This document shows positions 668-27,258 of a stretch of 64,000 nucleotides of DNA, one piece after another. Below the pieces are notes generated by a model. That model was given only the letters and a program-made list of their open reading frames with translations, was not told where the DNA came from and did not search any database. This DNA is from a phage. The position numbers and the translations under genes are program-made. Where the stretch lies: the sequence record PZ583743.1; one strand, written 5' to 3'. The first letter of the stretch is position 1. Each line of letters begins with the position of its first letter.

Positions 668-1141
668 TCATTTTAAACTCTTTCTAAGCTGCTTCTTAAA
701 TGAAGCTATTAATTGTGTTTTAGTGTCAGATTCATTATATTCAAATCCTCTTTGAAGCATCTCAGCCATCATTTCCTCTTTTCCTAAACGAGAAAATTCC
801 TTTGATTTATCTCCAACAAAGTTAGGGTGAATATTATTTTGGGTGTAATCGGATTTTAAATAAGTAAGTAAATTTTCTAACCATTCAAGATAATCAACAC
901 CTTGTCCCTTTAAGCCAGAACGATTAAATTTATGCTTCATTTGACCTTCTGCGGCATTGCATAGATTACAAAGCAATCCACGTACCTTTCCTGCTTTTGG
1001 TCCATTTAATTCATGGTCATGATCAAGATGATTAGCTTGAACATCAGGATTTAGTTCTCGTTGGCAAATTAAGCATTTACCGTTTTGCGCATCATAAAAT
1101 TTCTGTTTTTCTTCTTTATATAATTTGCCAGTCAATAACAT
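668..1141 (-). CDS. 49: Endonuclease VII (Holliday junction resolvase)
   Basis: 157 aa; MLLTGKLYKEEKQKFYDAQNGKCLICQRELNPDVQANHLDHDH with Cys-rich zinc motif, matching T4 gp49 as remembered. Confidence 0.9.
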   Translation of the reverse strand: MLLTGKLYKEEKQKFYDAQNGKCLICQRELNPDVQANHLDHDHELNGPKAGKVRGLLCNLCNAAEGQMKHKFNRSGLKGQGVDYLEWLENLLTYLKSDYTQNNIHPNFVGDKSKEFSRLGKEEMMAEMLQRGFEYNESDTKTQLIASFKKQLRKSLK

Positions 1142-2214: not shown

Positions 2215-2393
2215 TTAGAAATAGACTTTTCACCATTAGAATAATAAACTTCAAGTTTAGCACGATTATTTTTAATTTGAATAACCTTGGCTGTCATCAA
2301 AGTTCCATACCCATAATAAACTGCAACTTCATCACCTACACATACCGCGCTTCCGCGGTAATCATGAATATAGTCAGTTCCTTCGAGCATCAT
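2178..2393 (-). CDS. Hypothetical protein, 71 aa
   Basis: Track ORF; overlaps neighbours by a few codons. Confidence 0.45.
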   Translation of the reverse strand: MMLEGTDYIHDYRGSAVCVGDEVAVYYGYGTLMTAKVIQIKNNRAKLEVYYSNGEKSISKWKYGDCMVKLG

Positions 2394-2653
2394 TTAAAAT
2401 ATTCTCGCAGTTGGTCAAATCCACCAATATGACTTCCATCAGGAGCAAATACCTGGGGCATTGTCAAGCCGATTTGAGTATCACGACCTAGTTTAGTCAG
2501 AAGCTCAGCAATTTTCTCATCATCAAAAACACCTTTTTCCGGCATAATGTTGATAAATTCAAACGGCTGTTTCTTCACGGTCAAAAGACGTTTTGCATTA
2601 TCGCAATACACACATTTATGAATGTTGCTATCATAACCATATACTTTAAACAT
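2390..2653 (-). CDS. nrdC: Phage thioredoxin/glutaredoxin NrdC
   Basis: 87 aa; MFKVYGYDSNIHKCVYCDNAKRLL with CVYC redox motif, matching T4 NrdC as remembered. Confidence 0.9.
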   Translation of the reverse strand: MFKVYGYDSNIHKCVYCDNAKRLLTVKKQPFEFINIMPEKGVFDDEKIAELLTKLGRDTQIGLTMPQVFAPDGSHIGGFDQLREYFK

Positions 2654-2899: not shown

Positions 2900-3289
2900 T
2901 TAATCCAAAATATTATTAGGCATTGGTTGAACACTCACAAGTTCTTTAAAGAACTCAGTAGAGTCAGGCAATTTAACCATTTCCGGAGCATGCTTACTGA
3001 ATTTATGTTTACATTGACGGCATTTATATTCAAGCTCTGGTTTACGCCAGTTAATCAATTGAACTTGTTCAGTACCGCATTCAGGGCAATTAGGAACGTT
3101 TTTAGAAGCTCTTTCACGTCGTTCAACCATAGCCATAATAGCATCCCATGCTGGAGGTTTAAAATCTAAATCGTCGCAGCCGTGAATCTTTCCACGCATT
3201 TCCATATCATCTTCCTCACCAGCCATAATAATTTTAATTAAACTGGAATTACTTGAAGCTGCAATGTCTTCTAATAAACGCTTTTTCAT
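2900..3289 (-). CDS. Hypothetical protein with C-terminal zinc-ribbon (CPEC...CRQC)
   Basis: 129 aa; four Cys in CxxC...CxxC spacing. Confidence 0.55.
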
Positions 3290-4212
3290 TTCAATACCTC
3301 AATAGCATTACGTAAACCATTTGCTTTGGCGGTTAAAGCCTTAAGAACTTTAGTATGCTCTTCAATCTGTTTTTCAACTTCAATCAAACGGGCACTGAGA
3401 TATTCGCGTTCTTCTTTCATAGTATCATTTCCATGATTGGATTTTGGTGTAGGTTTAAATTCACTAGGGTCCTTTAATTTAATAACAAATTTAGTTTCAA
3501 ACAGCGAAAGACCATAATTCGTATTATCATCAAAGGATTTGACTACATCCATATCAGATAATAACACGCGTAAATTATAAGCCAAAGAACTAATAGTTTC
3601 ATTGTGTTTATTAGCTTCGCGTGGTTTCATATACGGAAGATTTTTATATATCTCGTGCGGAGCACAAATGATAATTGACAATTCAAATTGCCCATTCTGG
3701 GACGATGGAGTGAATTTAGCCGTAACCCAGTCTTTTACATTCACATTAATAGTACGGTTATCACCATGACAAAACAGTCTACGAGAATGCTTAAAAAGCA
3801 TATTCACGTTATTATTGAATTCGTGTGAAAATTCACTAGCAAATTTTTCTTTACTATCTTTAGAAAACCATTCTTCTAAATAAGTTCTTTTCACGTCGTT
3901 AATAATATTAAATGTAACAACACTAGCATTTGATACATTAGTCTCAATGTAGCTTGGATACATAAATTTTTTAACATTATTAACAGCTATCACAGAAGAT
4001 AGTAATCGGGAACGTTTGAACCACTCGAGCAAAGAACCAAGAGAATGTGAATACGCATTTTGTGTATCTTTACAAATATGGTTTTCCCATCCAATATAGT
4101 CTAAAAAATCACGAAGAATATTATTGATTACTGCTCTGTGTCCTATCTGATAATTACGATGTTTAGTAATAAGACTGTCAAAATAATCAATATAATGTTT
4201 ACGAGTTTTCAT
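3286..4212 (-). CDS. Hypothetical protein, 308 aa, first of four tandem ORFs with coiled-coil-like C-terminus
   Basis: ATG at 4210-4212; C-terminal ~40 aa heptad-like helix after a Pro-rich linker. Confidence 0.6.
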   Translation of the reverse strand: MKTRKHYIDYFDSLITKHRNYQIGHRAVINNILRDFLDYIGWENHICKDTQNAYSHSLGSLLEWFKRSRLLSSVIAVNNVKKFMYPSYIETNVSNASVVTFNIINDVKRTYLEEWFSKDSKEKFASEFSHEFNNNVNMLFKHSRRLFCHGDNRTINVNVKDWVTAKFTPSSQNGQFELSIIICAPHEIYKNLPYMKPREANKHNETISSLAYNLRVLLSDMDVVKSFDDNTNYGLSLFETKFVIKLKDPSEFKPTPKSNHGNDTMKEEREYLSARLIEVEKQIEEHTKVLKALTAKANGLRNAIEVLK

Positions 4213-4264
4213 GTTCTTCTCACTTGGTTAATGATTTATACTCCGAGCCATCCTTGGCTTTAAA

Positions 4265-5266
4265 TTACTTAATTAACTGTAAAGCTTGTTCCAGACGATC
4301 AAGACGATTAACAGATTCTTCCCAAATCCTTTTAGCCTGCTCATATTCTTTCTGCGCTTTATTAGAAATTTCTAGAACTTCTTTATAAGCTTTTTCTAGT
4401 GCAATAACTTCTGGACGAATTTCTATCGGTTCAGGTGAATCATCAAGACATTCCATTAGTTCCTCAAGGGTAGTTTCTTCTTTAGGAGTATTCACAATTT
4501 CATCACATTTTTGTTGGTAAATTTCTTTATCAGTAGGTGAATAAGCACATTTCACTTCACGAAGGCTAATTACGAGTTTATATCCTTCCCAACCGCATAT
4601 ATTCTTAAAAGGATATGTATGAATATTTTCTACTGTTTCCATACAAAGTAATGCGGTCTCTAATTGACGAGTTATAGTGCTAGCAATTGAGAAAAATTTA
4701 TTAATATTCTTTTGGTTAGTTTCTGGTGTAAAAAATCCATAATTCACAAAAATAGATACTTTATTTTTATCAAGTTCATATTCTTTTATGATAATCATAT
4801 CAGAAGCCAAAGGATGAATTTGACGATAATCGCCATAACATAATTTAGAAGCTGATTTTAGAATCTGTCCTTTGAAAAGTCTGAAATTACTAATCCAACG
4901 ACGAGTAAAAATATTCTCAGGGTCTTCTTTATTATTAAGATGATAAGAATTAACATCACCGAACCAATTATATCCTACTACATCTTTGGTTCGTTTAATT
5001 TCTTTCCCAAAATTACCAAGAATATCCCGATTAACCAAATATGAAAGAAGACGAGACTCTTTAAAGGTTTTCTTGATAACATCTTTATCTACACGGCTAG
5101 AAATTTTACGAATTTCATGAATAAATTTAGTAGAAGAAACAATACTTGCATCAACACTATTGAGCCATTGATTGATAATAGAAAGAACGCTATTTTGGCC
5201 AAACATCGGTATAGCTTTATCATCAATAACGCTATTGAATGATTTGATATATTCGTTACGAGTCAT
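4265..5266 (-). CDS. Hypothetical protein, ~333 aa, second tandem ORF with coiled-coil-like C-terminus
   Basis: Start moved to ATG at 5264-5266 (MTRNEYIKS), preceded by GAGGAG and an early-type promoter; track ORF starts 51 nt further upstream. Confidence 0.6.
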   Translation of the reverse strand: MTRNEYIKSFNSVIDDKAIPMFGQNSVLSIINQWLNSVDASIVSSTKFIHEIRKISSRVDKDVIKKTFKESRLLSYLVNRDILGNFGKEIKRTKDVVGYNWFGDVNSYHLNNKEDPENIFTRRWISNFRLFKGQILKSASKLCYGDYRQIHPLASDMIIIKEYELDKNKVSIFVNYGFFTPETNQKNINKFFSIASTITRQLETALLCMETVENIHTYPFKNICGWEGYKLVISLREVKCAYSPTDKEIYQQKCDEIVNTPKEETTLEELMECLDDSPEPIEIRPEVIALEKAYKEVLEISNKAQKEYEQAKRIWEESVNRLDRLEQALQLIK

Positions 5267-5294
5267 AATAATCTCCTCAGTAGAAAGTAAGAAC

Positions 5295-5324
5295 ATTATA
5301 CCACATCCTTGTGGCAAAGTAAAC
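5295..5324 (-). promoter_or_regulatory. Early-type promoter (GTTTAC, 18 nt spacer, TATAAT)
   Basis: Read on minus strand; -35 at 5319-5324, -10 at 5295-5300. Confidence 0.5.
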
Positions 5325-6352
5325 TAGTTCAGTGCATTTAGTGCATTGTTCAGTTTAGAACGTTGCTTTGTCAGATTTTGAACCCTTGACTGAGCTTGTT
5401 CTAACGTCTTTTCAGCTTCTAGCATTTCATTGGTCGCTTTAACGAGTTCATCATCTACTGCCTTAAGAGACTTTTCAATCGCATCAGCGTGCCATTTTTC
5501 TACAGGTTTAAAATTTGAATTTTCAGTAGGAAGAAAACTCACTTTATTAAGTTTACATGCATCTATGTTACTTGAACTGTACATCCAACATTTAGGATCG
5601 TTTGATAAGTAATTGGATAAATTTAAATTTAAGGTATCTTGCACTTCCTGCTTTTTCTCTTGAACAATTTCATCCTTTCTCAAAAATTCATATTTAAATG
5701 AAACGATCATATCAAGTTCATATGTTGTTGTATGTTCCCAATTTCGCTCAAAACGAGGTAAAATCTTAGATTGAACAGCAGCAACAACATCCATATACTT
5801 AAATGCTTCTGTCAGCTGTGATTTAAGACATTCACAAATTGAAAGAGAATTTTTAGTATTAGGCTTAAAGCTAATTCGTGCAGTTCTATTATTTTCTTTT
5901 AACGGTCTTACTTCCATCTGAAGAGTATAACCATCAAATTTCAGGTTCTTTAAGTTAATATCAGAGCCTTTTAATCGACTAGCAGTAGACAAAATTTGCT
6001 TTAATTGTTTACGGAATAGAGCAATAAATCTCCATTCAATACGATAATGATTTGGATTGAAAAATCCAGATGATAAATCGACCTTACTTTGACCAACGCC
6101 TTGAACAATCAAAGGATTTTTATAATCAATAGTTTTACAGAAATCGGTGAGCTGTTCACGAGCAGTCATTTGTGTAATATACCCTGCTTTACTAAAATTA
6201 CGCACCCATTCACTGCTATTCGTATACTTAAAGTGATGAATAACACGATTAACTTTATCAGGGTCTAAATTATTTTCACACAAAAATGTCATAACATCAC
6301 GAGTATAGCTGGCATTACGAACCATATCTTCAATTTGAGAACGAGTTTTCAT
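5324..6352 (-). CDS. Hypothetical protein, 342 aa, third tandem ORF with coiled-coil-like C-terminus
   Basis: ATG at 6350-6352; C-terminal heptad-like helix. Confidence 0.6.
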   Translation of the reverse strand: MKTRSQIEDMVRNASYTRDVMTFLCENNLDPDKVNRVIHHFKYTNSSEWVRNFSKAGYITQMTAREQLTDFCKTIDYKNPLIVQGVGQSKVDLSSGFFNPNHYRIEWRFIALFRKQLKQILSTASRLKGSDINLKNLKFDGYTLQMEVRPLKENNRTARISFKPNTKNSLSICECLKSQLTEAFKYMDVVAAVQSKILPRFERNWEHTTTYELDMIVSFKYEFLRKDEIVQEKKQEVQDTLNLNLSNYLSNDPKCWMYSSSNIDACKLNKVSFLPTENSNFKPVEKWHADAIEKSLKAVDDELVKATNEMLEAEKTLEQAQSRVQNLTKQRSKLNNALNALN

Positions 6353-6360
6353 GGTGTTCC

Positions 6361-7248
6361 TTAAGATTTAAGTAAATCAACGATTTTAATTAATTTTTCA
6401 CGCTCAGATTTAGCTTTACTACTCAATCCAGATAGTCTGAAAATTTCATCATCATATTGCTGAATAGAAATATTTAGCTCTTCAATCTGCTTATTAAAAT
6501 AAGCAATTTGTTCAGAATGTTTTTCATTACTGCGAACTGGTACAGGTTTTGTAGGTAATTTAGTTGAACTGGATTCATCTGGGCGATAAATTAAAATGCA
6601 ATTTGAACCAATCGGACATTTAGCACCAGACACATATTCTAATGTTCCGGCTTCTTTTAAAACTTCAAAAGCTAAACAGAGATGATGCCCCATATTAACA
6701 TAATCTGTAGAGCGAGCTCTGATGTAATAATCATCTCCACGAGTACTAAATTTAAAGCATTTAAGGTCTTCTGTATTATTGGTCTTAAAAATCATTTGTT
6801 TATCTAGACCTTTAGCTAATCGAGCGCCTAATGCTAATAATCGTCGTTGATTTTCCCACAAATCCGCAATCATTTGGTCAAATGATAATTTCGGCATTAG
6901 TCGACCATAAAGGTCATATCCTTTATTATAATTGCGAAGGATTTCACTCGCATTAATACGAGACAACGCTCCAATTTTATTAAGGGCTTTCATGATGCGA
7001 TTAGATAAACCCATTCCAGATCCGTTTGTTCGTTGCAAATGTTTATCTAATCCAAACCCAATATCAACTTTAAATTTATCTAAAATTTCAGCATGAACAT
7101 CTCTGTCAATAACATTCAAATCCAAAGTTGGGTTAAATCTATGAAAAAATTTATCTGGCTCTCCACGACGAAGTACAGTCCATTCATTTAATTTTTTATT
7201 AACTAAAGATTTAATTACTGCATTGACATTATTAATTACTACTGACAT
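6361..7248 (-). CDS. Hypothetical protein, ~295 aa, fourth tandem ORF with coiled-coil-like C-terminus
   Basis: Track start is TTG at 7261-7263; in-frame ATG at 7246-7248 with GAGGAAA upstream. Confidence 0.6.
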   Translation of the reverse strand: MSVVINNVNAVIKSLVNKKLNEWTVLRRGEPDKFFHRFNPTLDLNVIDRDVHAEILDKFKVDIGFGLDKHLQRTNGSGMGLSNRIMKALNKIGALSRINASEILRNYNKGYDLYGRLMPKLSFDQMIADLWENQRRLLALGARLAKGLDKQMIFKTNNTEDLKCFKFSTRGDDYYIRARSTDYVNMGHHLCLAFEVLKEAGTLEYVSGAKCPIGSNCILIYRPDESSSTKLPTKPVPVRSNEKHSEQIAYFNKQIEELNISIQQYDDEIFRLSGLSSKAKSEREKLIKIVDLLKS

Positions 7249-7259
7249 ATTTTCCTCAC

Positions 7260-7664
7260 TCAATTTTCAATTTTACTAAATATACAGAATAAGATGGAAC
7301 AGACTATATAAGCACCACACACAGATTGAACTAATACCATTCCAAAGAACCAAACAATATTATCAAACAATGTCTGTTTTACGTCGAAAGGACGTAAACT
7401 TACAGTAATATTATCACCTTTTTCTATTGAAGAATACATCTCTGGGGAAATATATTCACTAAATCTATAACCGTCTTTGAGTTCATATACAGCAATAAAC
7501 GATAAACTAGACCCCTTTCCTTGAGTTCCTGTAAAGGTATTAACTACAGTAACATCATAATCTTTATAATGCATATAATCATTAATAGCATAATAACCAT
7601 ATGCAATTATTATACATAAACAACATATCAATAAATTCAATCTTTTAATTATCAACTGTTTCAT
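7260..7664 (-). CDS. Hypothetical membrane protein, 134 aa
   Basis: Hydrophobic N- and C-terminal segments; ATG at 7662-7664. Confidence 0.55.
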   Translation of the reverse strand: MKQLIIKRLNLLICCLCIIIAYGYYAINDYMHYKDYDVTVVNTFTGTQGKGSSLSFIAVYELKDGYRFSEYISPEMYSSIEKGDNITVSLRPFDVKQTLFDNIVWFFGMVLVQSVCGAYIVCSILFCIFSKIEN

Positions 7665-7719
7665 AATAATCTCAATTAAAAGGGCTTAGAACCATTATAC
7701 CATCCTTGGTATAAAGCGG

Positions 7720-8247
7720 TTATGCGAGTACCGTCTTTAACCGTTCTTCAAACTTCCGAAGAGTATTTTGGCGTTCAGCTCTTTGCTTTTTGTAAGTTTC
7801 AATACGCTCTGAAATGAGAGTGTATCGTTCATTTACTGATTCTTTCATAAAATCAGGAATTTCACGAGAAGCTTTAATCTCATCAAATTTATCAATAACA
7901 GCTTGCTCTTCAGCAATTAAGTTATCATACATCAAAATATCTTTCTTGATGAACTCAATATCTTCTTGAGTTACACGAGATAATTTAGATGCTTTATCCT
8001 TTTTGTACTGTTCATTAGTATCACGAGACCAGTGTAATGTACGATTTTTATTCGTATTCTTGTAAATTTCTACAATACCAATCTCATCGATAATAACGAT
8101 CCAATTCCAACGGGATTTGTAAATTTGTCCTCCATCAACCGTGATTTCACCTCCAATTGAGATGTCATTAAAGAACTTGCTTTGTGCTTCAGATTTAAAT
8201 TTACCATCGTTGTAATTTACCAGGTTGAAAATATCTTTAGCGTTCAT
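7720..8247 (-). CDS. Hypothetical protein, 175 aa, C-terminal coiled-coil-like
   Basis: ATG at 8245-8247 preceded by GGAGGAACA; early promoter just upstream. Confidence 0.55.
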   Translation of the reverse strand: MNAKDIFNLVNYNDGKFKSEAQSKFFNDISIGGEITVDGGQIYKSRWNWIVIIDEIGIVEIYKNTNKNRTLHWSRDTNEQYKKDKASKLSRVTQEDIEFIKKDILMYDNLIAEEQAVIDKFDEIKASREIPDFMKESVNERYTLISERIETYKKQRAERQNTLRKFEERLKTVLA

Positions 8248-8275
8248 TTTGTGTTCCTCCGTAGTTGATAGTTGT

Positions 8276-8305
8276 ATAGTACCACAGAGGAACAGTCTTG
8301 TAAAC
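8276..8305 (-). promoter_or_regulatory. Early-type promoter (GTTTAC, 18 nt, TACTAT)
   Basis: -35 at 8300-8305, -10 at 8276-8281 on minus strand. Confidence 0.5.
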
Positions 8306-8307
8306 CA

Positions 8308-8622
8308 CTAAAAGAAACTTCTTTCACAATTTTTTCCACTGAACCATGCGCTCACTGCTTTCTTAGTCTCAGGAGCAGTGTTATCCATAAACCATTCAAA
8401 GGCAGCCTTTTTATGATTCTGGAGGGCTTCTCGGGCTTTAATCTGCTCACGGTCTATTAACACTAACATATGAGCCTTTCTTGTCACCATGGGCTTCTTA
8501 TGATTTTTTGAATACTCCCAGTCATTTGTCCATCGCATTGTCGTTGCGAACTTAAATACTGCTTCTTTAATTTTAGTTTCGTAAATTTCACGAGCCTTTG
8601 AGTATAACATCATTACCTCCAT
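8308..8622 (-). CDS. Hypothetical protein, ~101-104 aa
   Basis: Track ORF; likely start at the second ATG pair (8611-8613) which has GGAGGT upstream. Confidence 0.5.
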   Translation of the reverse strand: MEVMMLYSKAREIYETKIKEAVFKFATTMRWTNDWEYSKNHKKPMVTRKAHMLVLIDREQIKAREALQNHKKAAFEWFMDNTAPETKKAVSAWFSGKNCERSFF

Positions 8623-8711
8623 TCACCAGTTTAATTCTAGTTATCTTTTTAATGGCAGTCCATATAATCTATTTCTGAACTGCCTTTTTGTCATAGAAGT
8701 CCTCTTATGAA

Positions 8712-9680
8712 TTATTTCAGAAGAGTAACCTCAGCAATTTCTTCCCAACCGTTTTTGTCGGTCATAATAAAGTCAGCAAGATAAAGAGCAGTACGCAGTG
8801 AAACATTGCGTAAACGATTAACATTAACTTTCATCCATGATAATGCTTTATAAGTTTCTTCATCAGAAAGACCGCGCTTTTGCATCATGTCAGTTGAAAG
8901 AATAACATCTTCAACCCTGACCATAATTTCTTCATTAGTGTGAACACCCAAATCCAAATAAACCGAGCGGGACACTAATGCTTGTAAATGTGGAGCAAGT
9001 TTAGTACCACGGTCTAATTCGCGGTCAATGTCAACGTTTGTGATAAAAACAATCGTTCCTTTAAATTCAAACTCACGCTCAATGCCTTTTTCTTCTAAGT
9101 AAGAAGATGCGGTGCTCCAGCAGACTTTACGGGTCTCTCCAGTGTCCAGAGCAGCTTTCAGAAGATTAAGAATGTCCATATCAGAGAAAACATCCACATC
9201 ATCAATCAAAAGGACAGAATTCTCTTCACGATTATTCCAAAGCTGTTCATAAAGACCGATACCAGAGATTTTACCATTAATGCTTTTATATTCAATGTAT
9301 CCATTATCATTTGCTTTATTCAAAGCTTTATCTAAAGAATACGTTTTACCAATACCCGCCGCACCAGAGATAATTAATGAACGAATATTTCCGTTAATAA
9401 TACCATTCGTCATCATTCCCATAACATTAAATCTTTTATTAATGCGGGTTTTCATATCTTCATATGATTCTTTAACTTCTTCAACTTTTACACCATCATA
9501 TGAAATGTCTGATTTGTAAACCCAAACACCGCGACGCTTACCGTCAATTTCAACAAAAACTTTACCATCTCCTTGTGCATCTACCGGAGCATTATCTGGG
9601 AACCATTCACCTAAGAGCTCAAAAGTTCCAGAGATTTCTTTACCGAAGTAGATACCCTTATTGATAGTTACAGTTTTCAT
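8712..9680 (-). CDS. P-loop NTPase (Walker A GAAGIGKT, Walker B LLIDDVD)
   Basis: Track start is TTG at 9690-9692; in-frame ATG at 9678-9680 (MKTVTINKG) with GGAG upstream. Confidence 0.65.
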   Translation of the reverse strand: MKTVTINKGIYFGKEISGTFELLGEWFPDNAPVDAQGDGKVFVEIDGKRRGVWVYKSDISYDGVKVEEVKESYEDMKTRINKRFNVMGMMTNGIINGNIRSLIISGAAGIGKTYSLDKALNKANDNGYIEYKSINGKISGIGLYEQLWNNREENSVLLIDDVDVFSDMDILNLLKAALDTGETRKVCWSTASSYLEEKGIEREFEFKGTIVFITNVDIDRELDRGTKLAPHLQALVSRSVYLDLGVHTNEEIMVRVEDVILSTDMMQKRGLSDEETYKALSWMKVNVNRLRNVSLRTALYLADFIMTDKNGWEEIAEVTLLK

Positions 9681-9716
9681 TTTATTCTCCAATTTTACAT
9701 TTGTTTTGATAGGGTA

Positions 9717-9746
9717 ATAGTATCACACTACTACCCTGCTGTAAAC
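9717..9746 (-). promoter_or_regulatory. Early-type promoter (GTTTAC, 18 nt, TACTAT)
   Basis: -35 at 9741-9746, -10 at 9717-9722; upstream of the ATPase gene. Confidence 0.5.
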
Positions 9747-9749
9747 AAT

Positions 9750-10013
9750 TTATTTTAATGTTTGCCAAATTTTTACTGCTTCGCGACGAGATACTTCTAC
9801 GGCGCCAAGTTCTATAGCTTTTTGGCGTCGCCGAGCGTGTAAGTCATAATGTTTAATGCGTTTATCTTGAAACCAAGAACGTTTCATTCCTATTGCTTCT
9901 GCCATTTCATGAAGCTCTTCAATATCTCCATCAGTGAACATATGACAATTTTTAGTTGGATGACCGCGAAGTTTCCATCCATGATTCATTAAAACATCTA
10001 CGTAAACTGTCAT
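9750..10013 (-). CDS. Hypothetical protein, 87 aa (HYDL...RR motif; possibly a DUF4031-like small domain)
   Basis: Track ORF; family assignment is from memory of the motif only. Confidence 0.5.
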   Translation of the reverse strand: MTVYVDVLMNHGWKLRGHPTKNCHMFTDGDIEELHEMAEAIGMKRSWFQDKRIKHYDLHARRRQKAIELGAVEVSRREAVKIWQTLK

Positions 10014-10159
10014 TGATTCTTCTCCAAATAAGTTTCGATAATTTTCTGAGCGAGATAAACTGCATTATCTTCAGTTGCATCTTCTAAGAAACTTTCAAAA
10101 CACTCTGAAATTTCTTCTGTGTCAATCAACTTTTTTACTTCAATTGGTGTAATTTTCAT
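10010..10159 (-). CDS. Small hypothetical protein (~49 aa)
   Basis: Track ORF 10010..10228 extends through an early promoter; first ATG downstream of the promoter is at 10157-10159 (MKITPIEVKK). Confidence 0.35.
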   Translation of the reverse strand: MKITPIEVKKLIDTEEISECFESFLEDATEDNAVYLAQKIIETYLEKNQ

Positions 10160-10196
10160 TTTGTTTTTCCGTTTAAGTGTTTGTTTTGATAGTTGT

Positions 10197-10226
10197 ATAG
10201 TACCATAAAGCTTTATGCTTGTAAAC
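10197..10226 (-). promoter_or_regulatory. Early-type promoter (GTTTAC, 18 nt, TACTAT)
   Basis: -35 at 10221-10226, -10 at 10197-10202. Confidence 0.5.
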
Positions 10227-10244
10227 AATTTTGTGAAAAATTTT

Positions 10245-10276
10245 TGAAATAAAAAAGGGAGCCCGAAGGCTCCCTA
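10245..10276 (-). terminator. Rho-independent terminator
   Basis: Hairpin GGGAGCC-CGAA-GGCTCCC followed by a T-run on the minus strand. Confidence 0.6.
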
Positions 10277-11290
10277 TCATTTATAATAACTTCGGTGGTT
10301 TTCAAGATAAACCCTCTCAAGGAAGTCATCCCAAAAACCCATGTCTACTTTTTGCTGCATACCGTTCTTAGAAGCTTCAGTAGATGCTGCTTCTACTTGA
10401 TCGACCACATCTTCCAAAAACTCTTGAACCGTTTTAAATGGATGTTTACCCAACTTCACGTCGAGAATAAATGGAGCATCTTGGAGTGGATAAACCAAGT
10501 CACCAGTTTTGTAAATTTCCAATAGTTGGAGTCCACCACGGCAAGCATGACTCAGAGCTTTCCAGTCAATACCTTCATTGGCTTCGGCCTTACGAGCACG
10601 TTCACCGTATTCAGCATCTAATTTGTTCAGTGACTGCTTAAGCTCAATAAGAGAAAGCGTTGTCTGATATTTACGACCCAACACTGTGTAGAACGTCTGT
10701 GGGCCTGTTTTCTCATGATTATGGAATACCCATTCGCAGAATTCGTTCTCTGGAAGACGATGCTTAATATCTTCAACTTTAGTACGACGTTGCTTAATGG
10801 AACCGTCTTCTTGATAATCAACCCACTGGTCAGGGATTTGATTAACTACTTTCAATACATCACGCAATGCAGCCAAACGAGAACCCTTAACACCATATTT
10901 AGAAGCTTGCTTGCGGACATATCCTAAATAGGATTTCATGTTAGTCGTATAAAAACGAGAACGATTGTCTTGAATAAACTTCCATACATCAGGCAAATCA
11001 GATTTAACCACTAGCTCAGGTGGAGTGTGAAGCATATCCAATGCTACAGTTTCACCATCTGCCGCTAATTTAAAGAAATATTTAAGACTGTATAGTTCAT
11101 GGTCAATATCATCTTTAGTGTTTTTAGATGATGTGTTGTTAGTGTTTTTACTCATATGCTCTTTAACATTTCCGATAAGAATATCACGAGCAAGAGGAAC
11201 AAAGATTTCTTTAAAATCTACATCAGATTCTGGAGTAGAAGTTCCATAAAGATGACTACCAAAATAGCTTTTCATTACTGTTTTCATCAT
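10277..11290 (-). CDS. Pol-beta-superfamily nucleotidyltransferase-like protein, 337 aa
   Basis: N-terminal FGSHLYGTSTPESDVDF fits the G[SG]-x(9-13)-D-x-D minimal nucleotidyltransferase signature; rest of protein unassigned. Confidence 0.6.
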   Translation of the reverse strand: MMKTVMKSYFGSHLYGTSTPESDVDFKEIFVPLARDILIGNVKEHMSKNTNNTSSKNTKDDIDHELYSLKYFFKLAADGETVALDMLHTPPELVVKSDLPDVWKFIQDNRSRFYTTNMKSYLGYVRKQASKYGVKGSRLAALRDVLKVVNQIPDQWVDYQEDGSIKQRRTKVEDIKHRLPENEFCEWVFHNHEKTGPQTFYTVLGRKYQTTLSLIELKQSLNKLDAEYGERARKAEANEGIDWKALSHACRGGLQLLEIYKTGDLVYPLQDAPFILDVKLGKHPFKTVQEFLEDVVDQVEAASTEASKNGMQQKVDMGFWDDFLERVYLENHRSYYK

Positions 11291-20274: not shown

Positions 20275-20577
20275 TTATTTACCTTTAATTACTTTAGCTG
20301 CTTCGATAGCCGCTTGCTGAAGGTCATCCATAGACATACCGAATTTAGAAGCAAAGTTATCAATTTTCTTTTCGACAGCATTCAAAGGCTTGGCCTGTTT
20401 ACCTTCATTAGCGCCAGGAAGAGCGAGAATACGCTCTTTGTCAATATAAAGGCTTACAAGTTTCTTACGGTCTTTATCGGACAAATCGTGAAATGAATGG
20501 GCCTTTTTATTTATAGCGGCTTCTAATTTACCTGCACTCACTCGCGCTTCAGTAATAAATTCTTGATATGTTTTCAT
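20275..20577 (-). CDS. ipII: Internal protein II
   Basis: 100 aa; capsid-targeting leader MKTYQEFITEA; size matches T4 IPII. Confidence 0.85.
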   Translation of the reverse strand: MKTYQEFITEARVSAGKLEAAINKKAHSFHDLSDKDRKKLVSLYIDKERILALPGANEGKQAKPLNAVEKKIDNFASKFGMSMDDLQQAAIEAAKVIKGK

Positions 20578-26694: not shown

Positions 26695-27258
26695 TTATTT
26701 ATCTAGTTTAGTTATTATAGCTTCTGCGGCAGCTTTTAGCTTAGATGCGGTGTTAATACGATTTTTAATTTCAGTATACGCATCGCCAAGAACATCAAGG
26801 CTATCAGAATAAACACTTACACTATTGCGTTCGCTATTTGAAATAGAACCTTTAGTTTTACGATCAAAATCGGTGTACACGTCTTGAAGATCACGGGCTG
26901 CCTTCTTTGCATCATCCAATGCATCAAGAGCTTTATTCAAAGCATTAACGTATTTTTTAGTGTCGAACATATTCTTAGAAATTTTAACAGGTGCACGTTC
27001 AGGAGTAGCTAAGGCAGATTTAGGAACCTGAGCGCCTGATGCTAATTTCTTAGAAATTTTGAAAAATGTTTTATTGAATTTATTTTCTTGACTCATCGTA
27101 AAAGAACTATTATCGATGTTATACATTTCAATAGCTTTAGCTTTCCACTTAAGAAAATCGCCCCGGTCTTTTGGGTCCAAGTGGAAGAATACTTTAGTAA
27201 GATCTGCTTCAGATGGTAATTTTGCTGCTTCGGTTAAAAATTCGGCATAAGTTTTCAT
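26695..27258 (-). CDS. Internal-protein-like protein, 187 aa
   Basis: Leader MKTYAEFLTEA; no T4 counterpart recognised. Confidence 0.6.
   Translation of the reverse strand: MKTYAEFLTEAAKLPSEADLTKVFFHLDPKDRGDFLKWKAKAIEMYNIDNSSFTMSQENKFNKTFFKISKKLASGAQVPKSALATPERAPVKISKNMFDTKKYVNALNKALDALDDAKKAARDLQDVYTDFDRKTKGSISNSERNSVSVYSDSLDVLGDAYTEIKNRINTASKLKAAAEAIITKLDK

Follow-up and report, generated by a model that had tools for sequence, protein, structure and literature searches.

The nrdC.3–nrdC.6 array of a T4-like phage: strongly diverged paralogues with a common body–linker–helix layout and a candidate role in counter-defence

Herein, a 64,000-nucleotide stretch of phage DNA (sequence record PZ583743.1; the whole stretch is referred to below as the window) was analyzed, with emphasis on a tandem array of open reading frames (ORFs) that sits between nrdC and mobD. 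The window is part of a Tequatrovirus (T2/T4-like) genome, and the 5.5 kb around the array share 99.7% identity with Escherichia phage ECO07P4 and 91–96% with hundreds of T4/T2-like phages. All genes of the region are carried by the minus strand. The annotated T4 record U76612, together with T2 and RB69, served as the reference for gene names and gene order. The five ORFs flagged in an initial annotation of this DNA were present with the coordinates and lengths reported there, and their placement among the nrdC-proximal ORFs of T4 was also correct:

3286..4212, minus strand: nrdC.3 orthologue, 308 amino acids (aa); 92% identity to T4 nrdC.3 and 98% to T2 nrdC.3
4265..5266, minus strand: nrdC.4 orthologue, 333 aa from its ATG; 99% identity to T4 nrdC.4; a TTG-extended ORF reaches 5317
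5324..6352, minus strand: nrdC.5 orthologue, 342 aa, DUF7235; 93% identity to T4 nrdC.5, syntenic
6361..7248, minus strand: nrdC.6 orthologue, 295 aa
7720..8247, minus strand: nrdC.8 orthologue, 175 aa, with a match to phrog_2274

The preferred reading, rather probable as a whole, is that nrdC.3–nrdC.6 go back to old tandem duplications within one superfamily and have since diverged strongly, and that the array forms a battery of counter-defence or host-range factors. Paralogy, architecture, early-gene context and the published phenotype of one member, nrdC.5, are shown; the targets of nrdC.3, nrdC.4 and nrdC.6 and the role of the tail are inferred.

The layout proposed in the initial annotation, a body followed by a Pro-rich linker and a heptad helix, was confirmed. 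In nrdC.3–nrdC.6, a body of ~250 aa leads into a Pro-rich linker (13–17% Pro, compared with 2.0–2.6% in the bodies) and then into an amphipathic heptad helix of 45–58 aa. The hydrophobic a/d pattern of the C-termini was scored relative to shuffled sequences. Within the C-terminal 49 residues of the four proteins, 79–93% of a/d positions were found to be hydrophobic, compared with 14–26% of the other positions (p ≤ 0.006 throughout, with individual values below):

3289..3426, minus strand: heptad (coiled-coil-like) tail of nrdC.3, residues 263–308; p = 0.0035
4268..4414, minus strand: C-terminal helix and heptad tail of nrdC.4, residues 285–333; p = 0.006; AlphaFold2 (AF2) helix 285–332
5327..5506, minus strand: C-terminal helix and heptad tail of nrdC.5, residues 283–342; p < 0.0005; AF2 helix 283–341
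6364..6504, minus strand: heptad tail of nrdC.6, residues 249–295; p = 0.001

In the AF2 models of nrdC.4 and nrdC.5, the heptad periodicity falls within a single continuous helix that is preceded by a low-confidence linker. Furthermore, when the 75 ORFs of the window that do not overlap and reach 90 aa or more were scored, a heptad C-terminus was detected in 7; five of these seven are the flagged genes, four of them consecutive. Given the heptad statistics, the AF2 helices, the linker Pro content and this window-wide ORF control, the body–linker–helix layout is real and not a product of chance. The remaining two heptad-positive ORFs (20275-20577, minus strand, p 0.016; 26695-27258, minus strand, p 0.001; both over the C-terminal 42 residues) are by position unrelated to the array.

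The bodies had initially been described as unrelated. Family databases indeed divide the nrdC.3–nrdC.6 proteins among three separate Pfam and PHROG families. The nrdC.3/nrdC.4 family phrog_1435 was matched end to end by nrdC.3 (E 6.4e-101) and nrdC.4 (E 2e-168), and PF26897 is precomputed on all nrdC.4 homologues. The nrdC.5 protein matched PF23882 (DUF7235) with 403.3 bits against a cut-off of 30 over profile positions 1–307 of 307, and nrdC.3 gave a sub-threshold match of 11.4 bits to the same profile, in the tail only. The nrdC.6 protein matched phrog_2257 (E 3.3e-152, positions 1–303 of 303), with PF26899 precomputed on all its homologues. Pairwise BLASTP of the five flagged proteins found a weak similarity between nrdC.3 and nrdC.4 only (E 0.015), and was therefore too insensitive for the question.

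Profile comparisons connected the four bodies. HHalign of the family alignments yielded a probability of 98.1% for nrdC.3 and nrdC.4 (E 8e-14) across the body, and weaker, collinear alignments of nrdC.4 with nrdC.5 (47.6%) and nrdC.6 (19.8%). Profiles of single-copy homologues from Jiaodavirus and Karamvirus, both small, were then compared with a joint nrdC.3–nrdC.4 profile and with those of the other two genes. The joint profile matched the Jiaodavirus profile at 95.5% (E 1.5e-8), the Karamvirus profile at 87% and nrdC.5 at 82% (E 1e-5). The Jiaodavirus and Karamvirus profiles matched each other at 96% (E 4.7e-9), and nrdC.5 matched them at 87% and 81%, respectively. For nrdC.6, the Karamvirus profile was matched at 88% (E 3.5e-6; 88–94% across comparisons), with 25–28 bits in HMMER. 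HMMER scores across families ranged from 12 to 44 bits, while eight unrelated neighbouring proteins reached at most 3.7 bits. In addition, an N-terminal motif, M(K)TRxxYIxxF, is common to nrdC.3, nrdC.4 and nrdC.5.

These links persisted when the tails were cut off. Body-only HHalign returned probabilities of 96% for the joint profile with Jiaodavirus, 96% for Jiaodavirus with Karamvirus, 86% for nrdC.5 with Karamvirus, 77% for nrdC.5 with Jiaodavirus, 70% for the joint profile with nrdC.5, 68% for nrdC.6 with Karamvirus and 61% for the joint profile with Karamvirus, whereas reversed-profile controls stayed at or below 2.3% (score ≤ 22.6). Homology of the bodies is thus supported independently of the tails across the proposed nrdC.3–nrdC.6 superfamily, with nrdC.6 attached via the Karamvirus protein, and the description of the bodies as unrelated did not hold. 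On these comparisons, nrdC.3 and nrdC.4 are clear paralogues, to which the single-copy Jiaodavirus and Karamvirus relatives connect nrdC.5 and nrdC.6. At the DNA level, repeats between the paralogous genes, including the tail-coding segments, were limited to short chance matches, which indicates that the duplications are old. Recent duplication, or recombination hot-spots formed by common tail DNA, was rejected on the same basis.

Predicted structures were consistent with this relationship. The AF2 model of nrdC.4 was confident, with a predicted local distance difference test score (pLDDT) of 83.7 and a predicted template modelling score (pTM) of 0.68. It comprises a helical bundle (residues 3–84), an alpha/beta domain (88–235) in the order three strands, helix, two strands, helix and two strands, a short helix, a disordered segment (261–284) and the C-terminal helix (285–332, pLDDT 75–87). 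The model of nrdC.5, built on a shallow alignment, reached an overall pLDDT of 50, with its C-terminal helix (283–341) at 77–92. In this low-confidence model, a helix, two strands, a helix, two strands, a disordered segment and a long helix follow one another in an nrdC.4-like order. In a Foldseek comparison with BFVD, the nrdC.4 model aligned over its full length (E 1e-7 to 1e-4, probability 1.0) with uncharacterised proteins of 300–370 aa from T4-like phages of Enterobacter, Yersinia, Pectobacterium, Acinetobacter, Klebsiella, Erwinia and Serratia. Among these matches were two proteins of the Acinetobacter phage Acj61 with consecutive accessions (E5E4A1 and E5E4A2). The matches from phages Mineola and fHyAci03 are homologues of the Jiaodavirus and Acinetobacter proteins, and the entry from Enterobacter phage IME523 is presumably a member of the Karamvirus family, as judged from protein length and genus alone. 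The same search against the PDB returned nothing significant.

The tails follow a different pattern from the bodies. Among divergent homologues of nrdC.3, identity was ~77% (71–82%) in the tail and ~57% (55–59%) in the body; the corresponding values were 59% and 44% for nrdC.4 and 64% and 37% for nrdC.6. In nrdC.4 homologues that are only 40–50% identical overall, the last 20 residues were found to be almost invariant. Between paralogues, tail identity was 9–26%, and comparison of tail profiles anchored at the C-terminus gave a weak in-register signal for nrdC.3 with nrdC.4, nrdC.5 and nrdC.6 only. A single shared tail sequence was therefore rejected. Since tails are 59–77% identical within families and 9–26% identical between paralogues, the module is common as an architecture and not as a sequence. 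The initial suggestion of a diversifying family sharing one module consequently stands as regards the family, the layout and the heptad helix, and fails as regards one shared tail. The pattern of tail conservation fits a packing of each tail of its own, probably homotypic, rather than one module recognising a common partner.

It could also be argued that unrelated N-terminal bodies each acquired one oligomerisation or targeting module by domain shuffling, so that the family would amount to the tail alone. The near-absence of BLASTP similarity between the bodies, the three separate families in Pfam and PHROGs, and the better conservation of tails than bodies within each family are all compatible with such a history. 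Against it stand the body-only profile–profile and HMM comparisons, which connect all four proteins with clean reversed controls, as well as the collinear alignments and the same order of secondary-structure elements in the nrdC.4 and nrdC.5 models. The tails, moreover, are too different between paralogues for a recently shared module, and their coding segments carry no DNA-level repeat. Domain shuffling is thus largely refuted and is regarded as highly unlikely.

The families are very narrow, and related loci in other genera were therefore located via the conserved neighbour nrdC.10. An exhaustive HMMER search with the nrdC.3–nrdC.4 profile against 1.84 billion representatives returned 9 matches, all from the same narrow family and with no bridge families, and a search for related loci in IMG/VR gave few loci. 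Within the nrdC.10–nrdC interval, Jiaodavirus, Karamvirus and the Acinetobacter phages of Lazarusvirus were each found to encode a single protein of 324–343 aa with a heptad-like C-terminus, near a thioredoxin/glutaredoxin gene; RB69 carries three copies. When the last 42 residues were shuffled, p values of 0.004, 0.023 and 0.066 were obtained for the Karamvirus, Acinetobacter and Jiaodavirus proteins, respectively. In Klebsiella phage Mineola, which has a Jiaodavirus-type homologue, the gene abuts an nrdC.2-like gene, the position held by nrdC.3 here. The superfamily accordingly occurs at the nrdC locus in the sampled genera of Tevenvirinae and Twarogvirinae, and has so far been seen only in T4-like phages (Straboviridae).

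Another explanation would be ordinary similarity, with unrelated hypothetical proteins of no common function each having an amphipathic helix at the C-terminus by coincidence. Helices of this type are frequent at C-termini, and nrdC.8 and two unrelated ORFs of the window also score. Four consecutive matches against a background of 2/70, the support for body homology, and the conservation of the architecture at the same genomic position in distant genera all speak against coincidence. The profile and structure comparisons contradict this explanation, which is extremely improbable.

The nrdC.8 gene had been put forward as a fifth member with a similar tail. Its C-terminus is heptad-like, although with a weaker signal (p 0.004–0.026; 0.004 over 42 residues), and this generic helical feature is all that it shares with the array. 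Its profile probability against nrdC.3–nrdC.6 did not exceed 1.2%, and at 83% identity to RB69 it ranks among the most conserved genes of the region; membership in the family was therefore rejected.

The four array genes are early, dispensable on laboratory hosts and diverging much faster than their neighbours. Identity to RB69 was 56% for nrdC.3, 28% for nrdC.5 and 32% for nrdC.6, with nrdC.4 absent, compared with 78–92% for the neighbours gp49, nrdC, nrdC.8, nrdC.10 and nrdC.11. Within Tequatrovirus, nrdC.3 (window 3286-4212; locus L005 6001-6930) falls into allele classes of at least 90%, ~60% and ~55% identity. Phage ECML-134 carries an allele of the ~60% class (61%) between flanking genes that are 87–100% identical to the window, which indicates a cassette-like replacement of nrdC.3. 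A comparable allele split, 96% versus 36%, was found for the Acinetobacter homologue. Ratios of nonsynonymous to synonymous substitution rates (dN/dS) were 0.14–0.48 for nrdC.3–nrdC.5, 0.06–0.09 for nrdC.6 and 0.00–0.15 for nrdC.8–nrdC.11; since they are always below 1, the genes are functional. Natural rearrangements were also encountered. In phage ACG-C40 (locus L003 6802-7213), a deletion has left a 72-aa N-terminal nrdC.5 ORF and a remnant of the nrdC.3 tail. The protein P0056 is an in-frame chimera in which the middle of nrdC.5 is joined to the C-terminal half of nrdC.3, with loss of nrdC.4; PF26897 is precomputed on this chimera as well.

The array genes are read from early promoters, for which two promoter-like sites were located:

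5295..5323, minus strand: sigma-70-type early promoter-like site upstream of nrdC.4, TTTACT-17-TATAAT with TG, from a consensus scan; T4 "early promoter 50.0" (U76612)
8276..8304, minus strand: early promoter-like site upstream of nrdC.8, from a consensus scan; T4 has −35/−10 signals at the equivalent place

The second site would also drive nrdC.7, nrdC.6 and nrdC.5.

A function has been described for T4 nrdC.5. A T4 deletion clone did not plate on ECOR17, and deletion of dsr1 from the host restored plating (Srikant, Guegler & Laub, eLife 2022, PMC9391042). Cloned dsr1 protected MG1655 from the T4 deletion clone, and plasmid-borne T4 nrdC.5 restored plating of the deletion mutant on dsr1-carrying cells, thereby neutralising the Dsr1 sirtuin defence (PMC9391042). 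Dsr1 is a SIR2 NADase; a preprint from 2026 describes recognition of the phage major capsid protein by its tetratricopeptide repeat (TPR) sensor (PMC12803255). The product of the adjacent gp49.2 inhibits the OLD defence (PMC13096335). With 93% identity and a syntenic position, nrdC.5 of the window is the orthologue of the T4 anti-Dsr1 protein, the activity itself having been demonstrated for T4 nrdC.5. Its DUF7235 match agrees with this assignment, and nrdC.3, nrdC.4 and nrdC.6 are distant paralogues with the same three-part architecture. The study of T4 offered no mechanism for nrdC.5 and mentioned neither paralogy nor a coiled-coil tail (PMC9391042).

Because one copy, nrdC.5, disarms a bacterial immune protein, the array as a whole probably encodes blockers of host defence, and nrdC.3, nrdC.4 and nrdC.6 are candidate counter-defence genes. 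According to this battery model, each body would be adapted to a host immune protein of its own, which it would bind and block. Each tail would form a paralogue-specific homo-oligomeric coiled coil, and its oligomerisation could provide multivalent, high-avidity binding to oligomeric defence proteins. Several observations weigh against this reading. An experimental phenotype exists for nrdC.5 only among the four genes. Of the two structure models, which cover nrdC.4 and nrdC.5, only the former is confident, the latter being at pLDDT 50. Linked by a single bridge, the Karamvirus protein, with insignificant direct comparisons to the joint nrdC.3–nrdC.4 profile, nrdC.5 and the Jiaodavirus profile, nrdC.6 is the weakest member; its low dN/dS among close relatives is also unlike that of a gene in a fast, short-range arms race. 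PDB sequence searches found no relatives and the PADLOC defence library gave no matches, which leaves the mechanism unconstrained. Finally, a long amphipathic tail helix could dock onto a partner instead of self-associating.

The adjacency of the genes raises another possibility, namely that nrdC.3–nrdC.6 assemble into a single hetero-oligomeric complex, in which a mixed bundle of the coiled-coil tails joins the subunits, and that they act together on one target. Four adjacent, co-transcribed genes, each with one long amphipathic helix, would suit such an assembly, as would the agreement of the C-terminus-anchored registers of nrdC.3 with those of nrdC.4, nrdC.5 and nrdC.6. A fixed complex is difficult to reconcile with the variable copy number, which is one in Jiaodavirus, Karamvirus and Lazarusvirus and three in RB69, with natural phages from which nrdC.3–nrdC.5 are deleted, and with nrdC.3 alleles swapped independently of their neighbours. 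Furthermore, plasmid-borne nrdC.5 alone restored infection by the deletion mutant (evo-3; PMC9391042), which may indicate that it acts without the others. A hetero-complex is therefore judged improbable.

Similarly doubtful is the proposal that the alpha/beta domain derives from a tail-terminator or tail-completion fold, in which case the proteins would act as morphogenetic accessory factors or as early decoys resembling a structural protein that host pattern-recognition defences sense. The resemblance to tail terminator and completion proteins (lambda gpU, T5 p142, Mu and gene transfer agents) lies below the level that would support homology. Neither a significant fold match to a gpU-like terminator (Foldseek scores being insignificant) nor a location in a late structural module was found. 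The nrdC.3–nrdC.6 proteins differ from these proteins in their early timing, their genomic module, and their extra helical bundle and coiled-coil tail.

A more elaborate version of the counter-defence idea, which is seen as speculative and unlikely, treats the superfamily as a modular toolkit of sensor-blocking proteins at the nrdC locus, retargeted to different host sensors. Coiled-coil oligomers made early would present an alpha/beta body, possibly imitating the surface of a virion protein, that occupies the repeat-type sensors of host pattern-recognition defences, Dsr1 and Avs7-like proteins being examples. These sensors would be blocked before the late structural proteins appear, and duplication together with allele swapping would direct the bodies towards new targets of this kind. 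If this were correct, a separate defence system would be inhibited by each of nrdC.3, nrdC.4, nrdC.6 and the single-copy homologues from phages of Klebsiella, Enterobacter and Acinetobacter.

The T-even internal proteins (IPI, IPII, IPIII and the polymorphic Ip genes) constitute a hyper-variable tandem family whose members carry a conserved sequence for capsid targeting and act against restriction. A host-range role has been described for IPIII (PMC9391042). Like this family, nrdC.3–nrdC.6 comprise accessory proteins that diverge quickly and are encoded in tandem within a plastic part of the genome. In each of the two groups the bodies vary, a short terminal element is conserved, and a host defence is countered by at least one member. 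In the internal proteins, however, the element is N-terminal and cleaved, and the proteins are packaged and injected, whereas nrdC.3–nrdC.6 carry a C-terminal heptad helix and are expressed early after injection. By analogy, the internal-protein family may be viewed as the closest conceptual precedent. Another point of comparison is DSAD1, a phage inhibitor of the DSR2 sirtuin defence that binds the DSR2 sensor region (PMC10981675, PMC11087589). As a phage protein blocking a SIR2-NADase defence, it is a functional analogue of nrdC.5; unlike nrdC.5, it originates from Bacillus SPbeta-like phages and targets DSR2 rather than Dsr1, with no sequence or fold relationship detected between the two.

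The T4 ORFs themselves and the published role of nrdC.5 as an anti-Dsr1 factor are already known; what is added here is the joining of three Pfam/PHROG families into one superfamily. In the literature searched, no statement was found of an nrdC.3–nrdC.6 superfamily, of its recurrence across the sampled genera of Tevenvirinae and Twarogvirinae or of the body–linker–coiled-coil architecture. The genes have long been annotated in T4 as hypothetical proteins and are often mislabelled as thioredoxins. If the paralogy holds, the most thoroughly studied phage offers three candidate counter-defence proteins, nrdC.3, nrdC.4 and nrdC.6, and it would be worth testing as host-range determinants the single-copy homologues from therapy-used phages of Klebsiella, Enterobacter and Acinetobacter. 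The paralogy would also provide a simple structural hypothesis, in which a coiled-coil stalk carries a variable binding body.

The array is surrounded by the following genes:

668-1141, minus strand: gp49, endonuclease VII
2390-2653, minus strand: nrdC, followed by nrdC.1
2900-3289, minus strand: nrdC.2
7260-7664, minus strand: nrdC.7, membrane protein
Next in gene order after nrdC.8: nrdC.9, nrdC.10 (AAA-type NTPase) and nrdC.11 (nucleotidyltransferase)

The nrdC.3 gene lies directly upstream of nrdC.2, its stop codon overlapping the nrdC.2 start by 4 nt. The same 4-nt overlap of the homologue with an nrdC.2-like gene was observed in phage Mineola, and its conservation hints at translational coupling or a functional pair with nrdC.2. 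The nrdC.2 product (2900-3289) carries zinc-ribbon-like CxxC motifs and a sub-threshold Zn_ribbon_8 match (26.5 bits against a cut-off of 34.4, E 6.6e-6). Many GenBank phage genomes label all of nrdC.2–nrdC.11 (window 2900-11290) as "thioredoxin", apparently carried over from the gene-name prefix; no thioredoxin match was found in Pfam for any nrdC.2–nrdC.11 protein. The nrdC.8 gene has been treated as a nucleotide reductase in one 2026 paper.

Individual alleles also showed irregularities. Relative to the window (6470-6480), the T4 record U76612 (7395-7400) has a 1-nt deletion in nrdC.6, reading GAGCT-GATATT versus GAGCTAAATATT. The resulting frameshift truncates the coiled-coil tail, leaving 275 aa compared with 295 aa. 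Since the tail can still be read from the DNA that follows, in another frame, the deletion is either a sequencing error in an old record or a recent lesion of laboratory T4. The nrdC.6 homologue of Shigella phage Sf25 (P0121, 378 aa) is 98% identical over 87% of the query and has 83 additional residues, which may reflect a neighbouring ORF fused to it or a wrongly assigned start site. The annotated RB69 nrdC.5 (L004 5973-6875, 300 aa), with ~20–28% identity to nrdC.5 of the window, has a non-heptad end, …KPPWTNCLLNWTRHKLSSVMLKVL, which suggests either a frameshifted tail or a very divergent allele.

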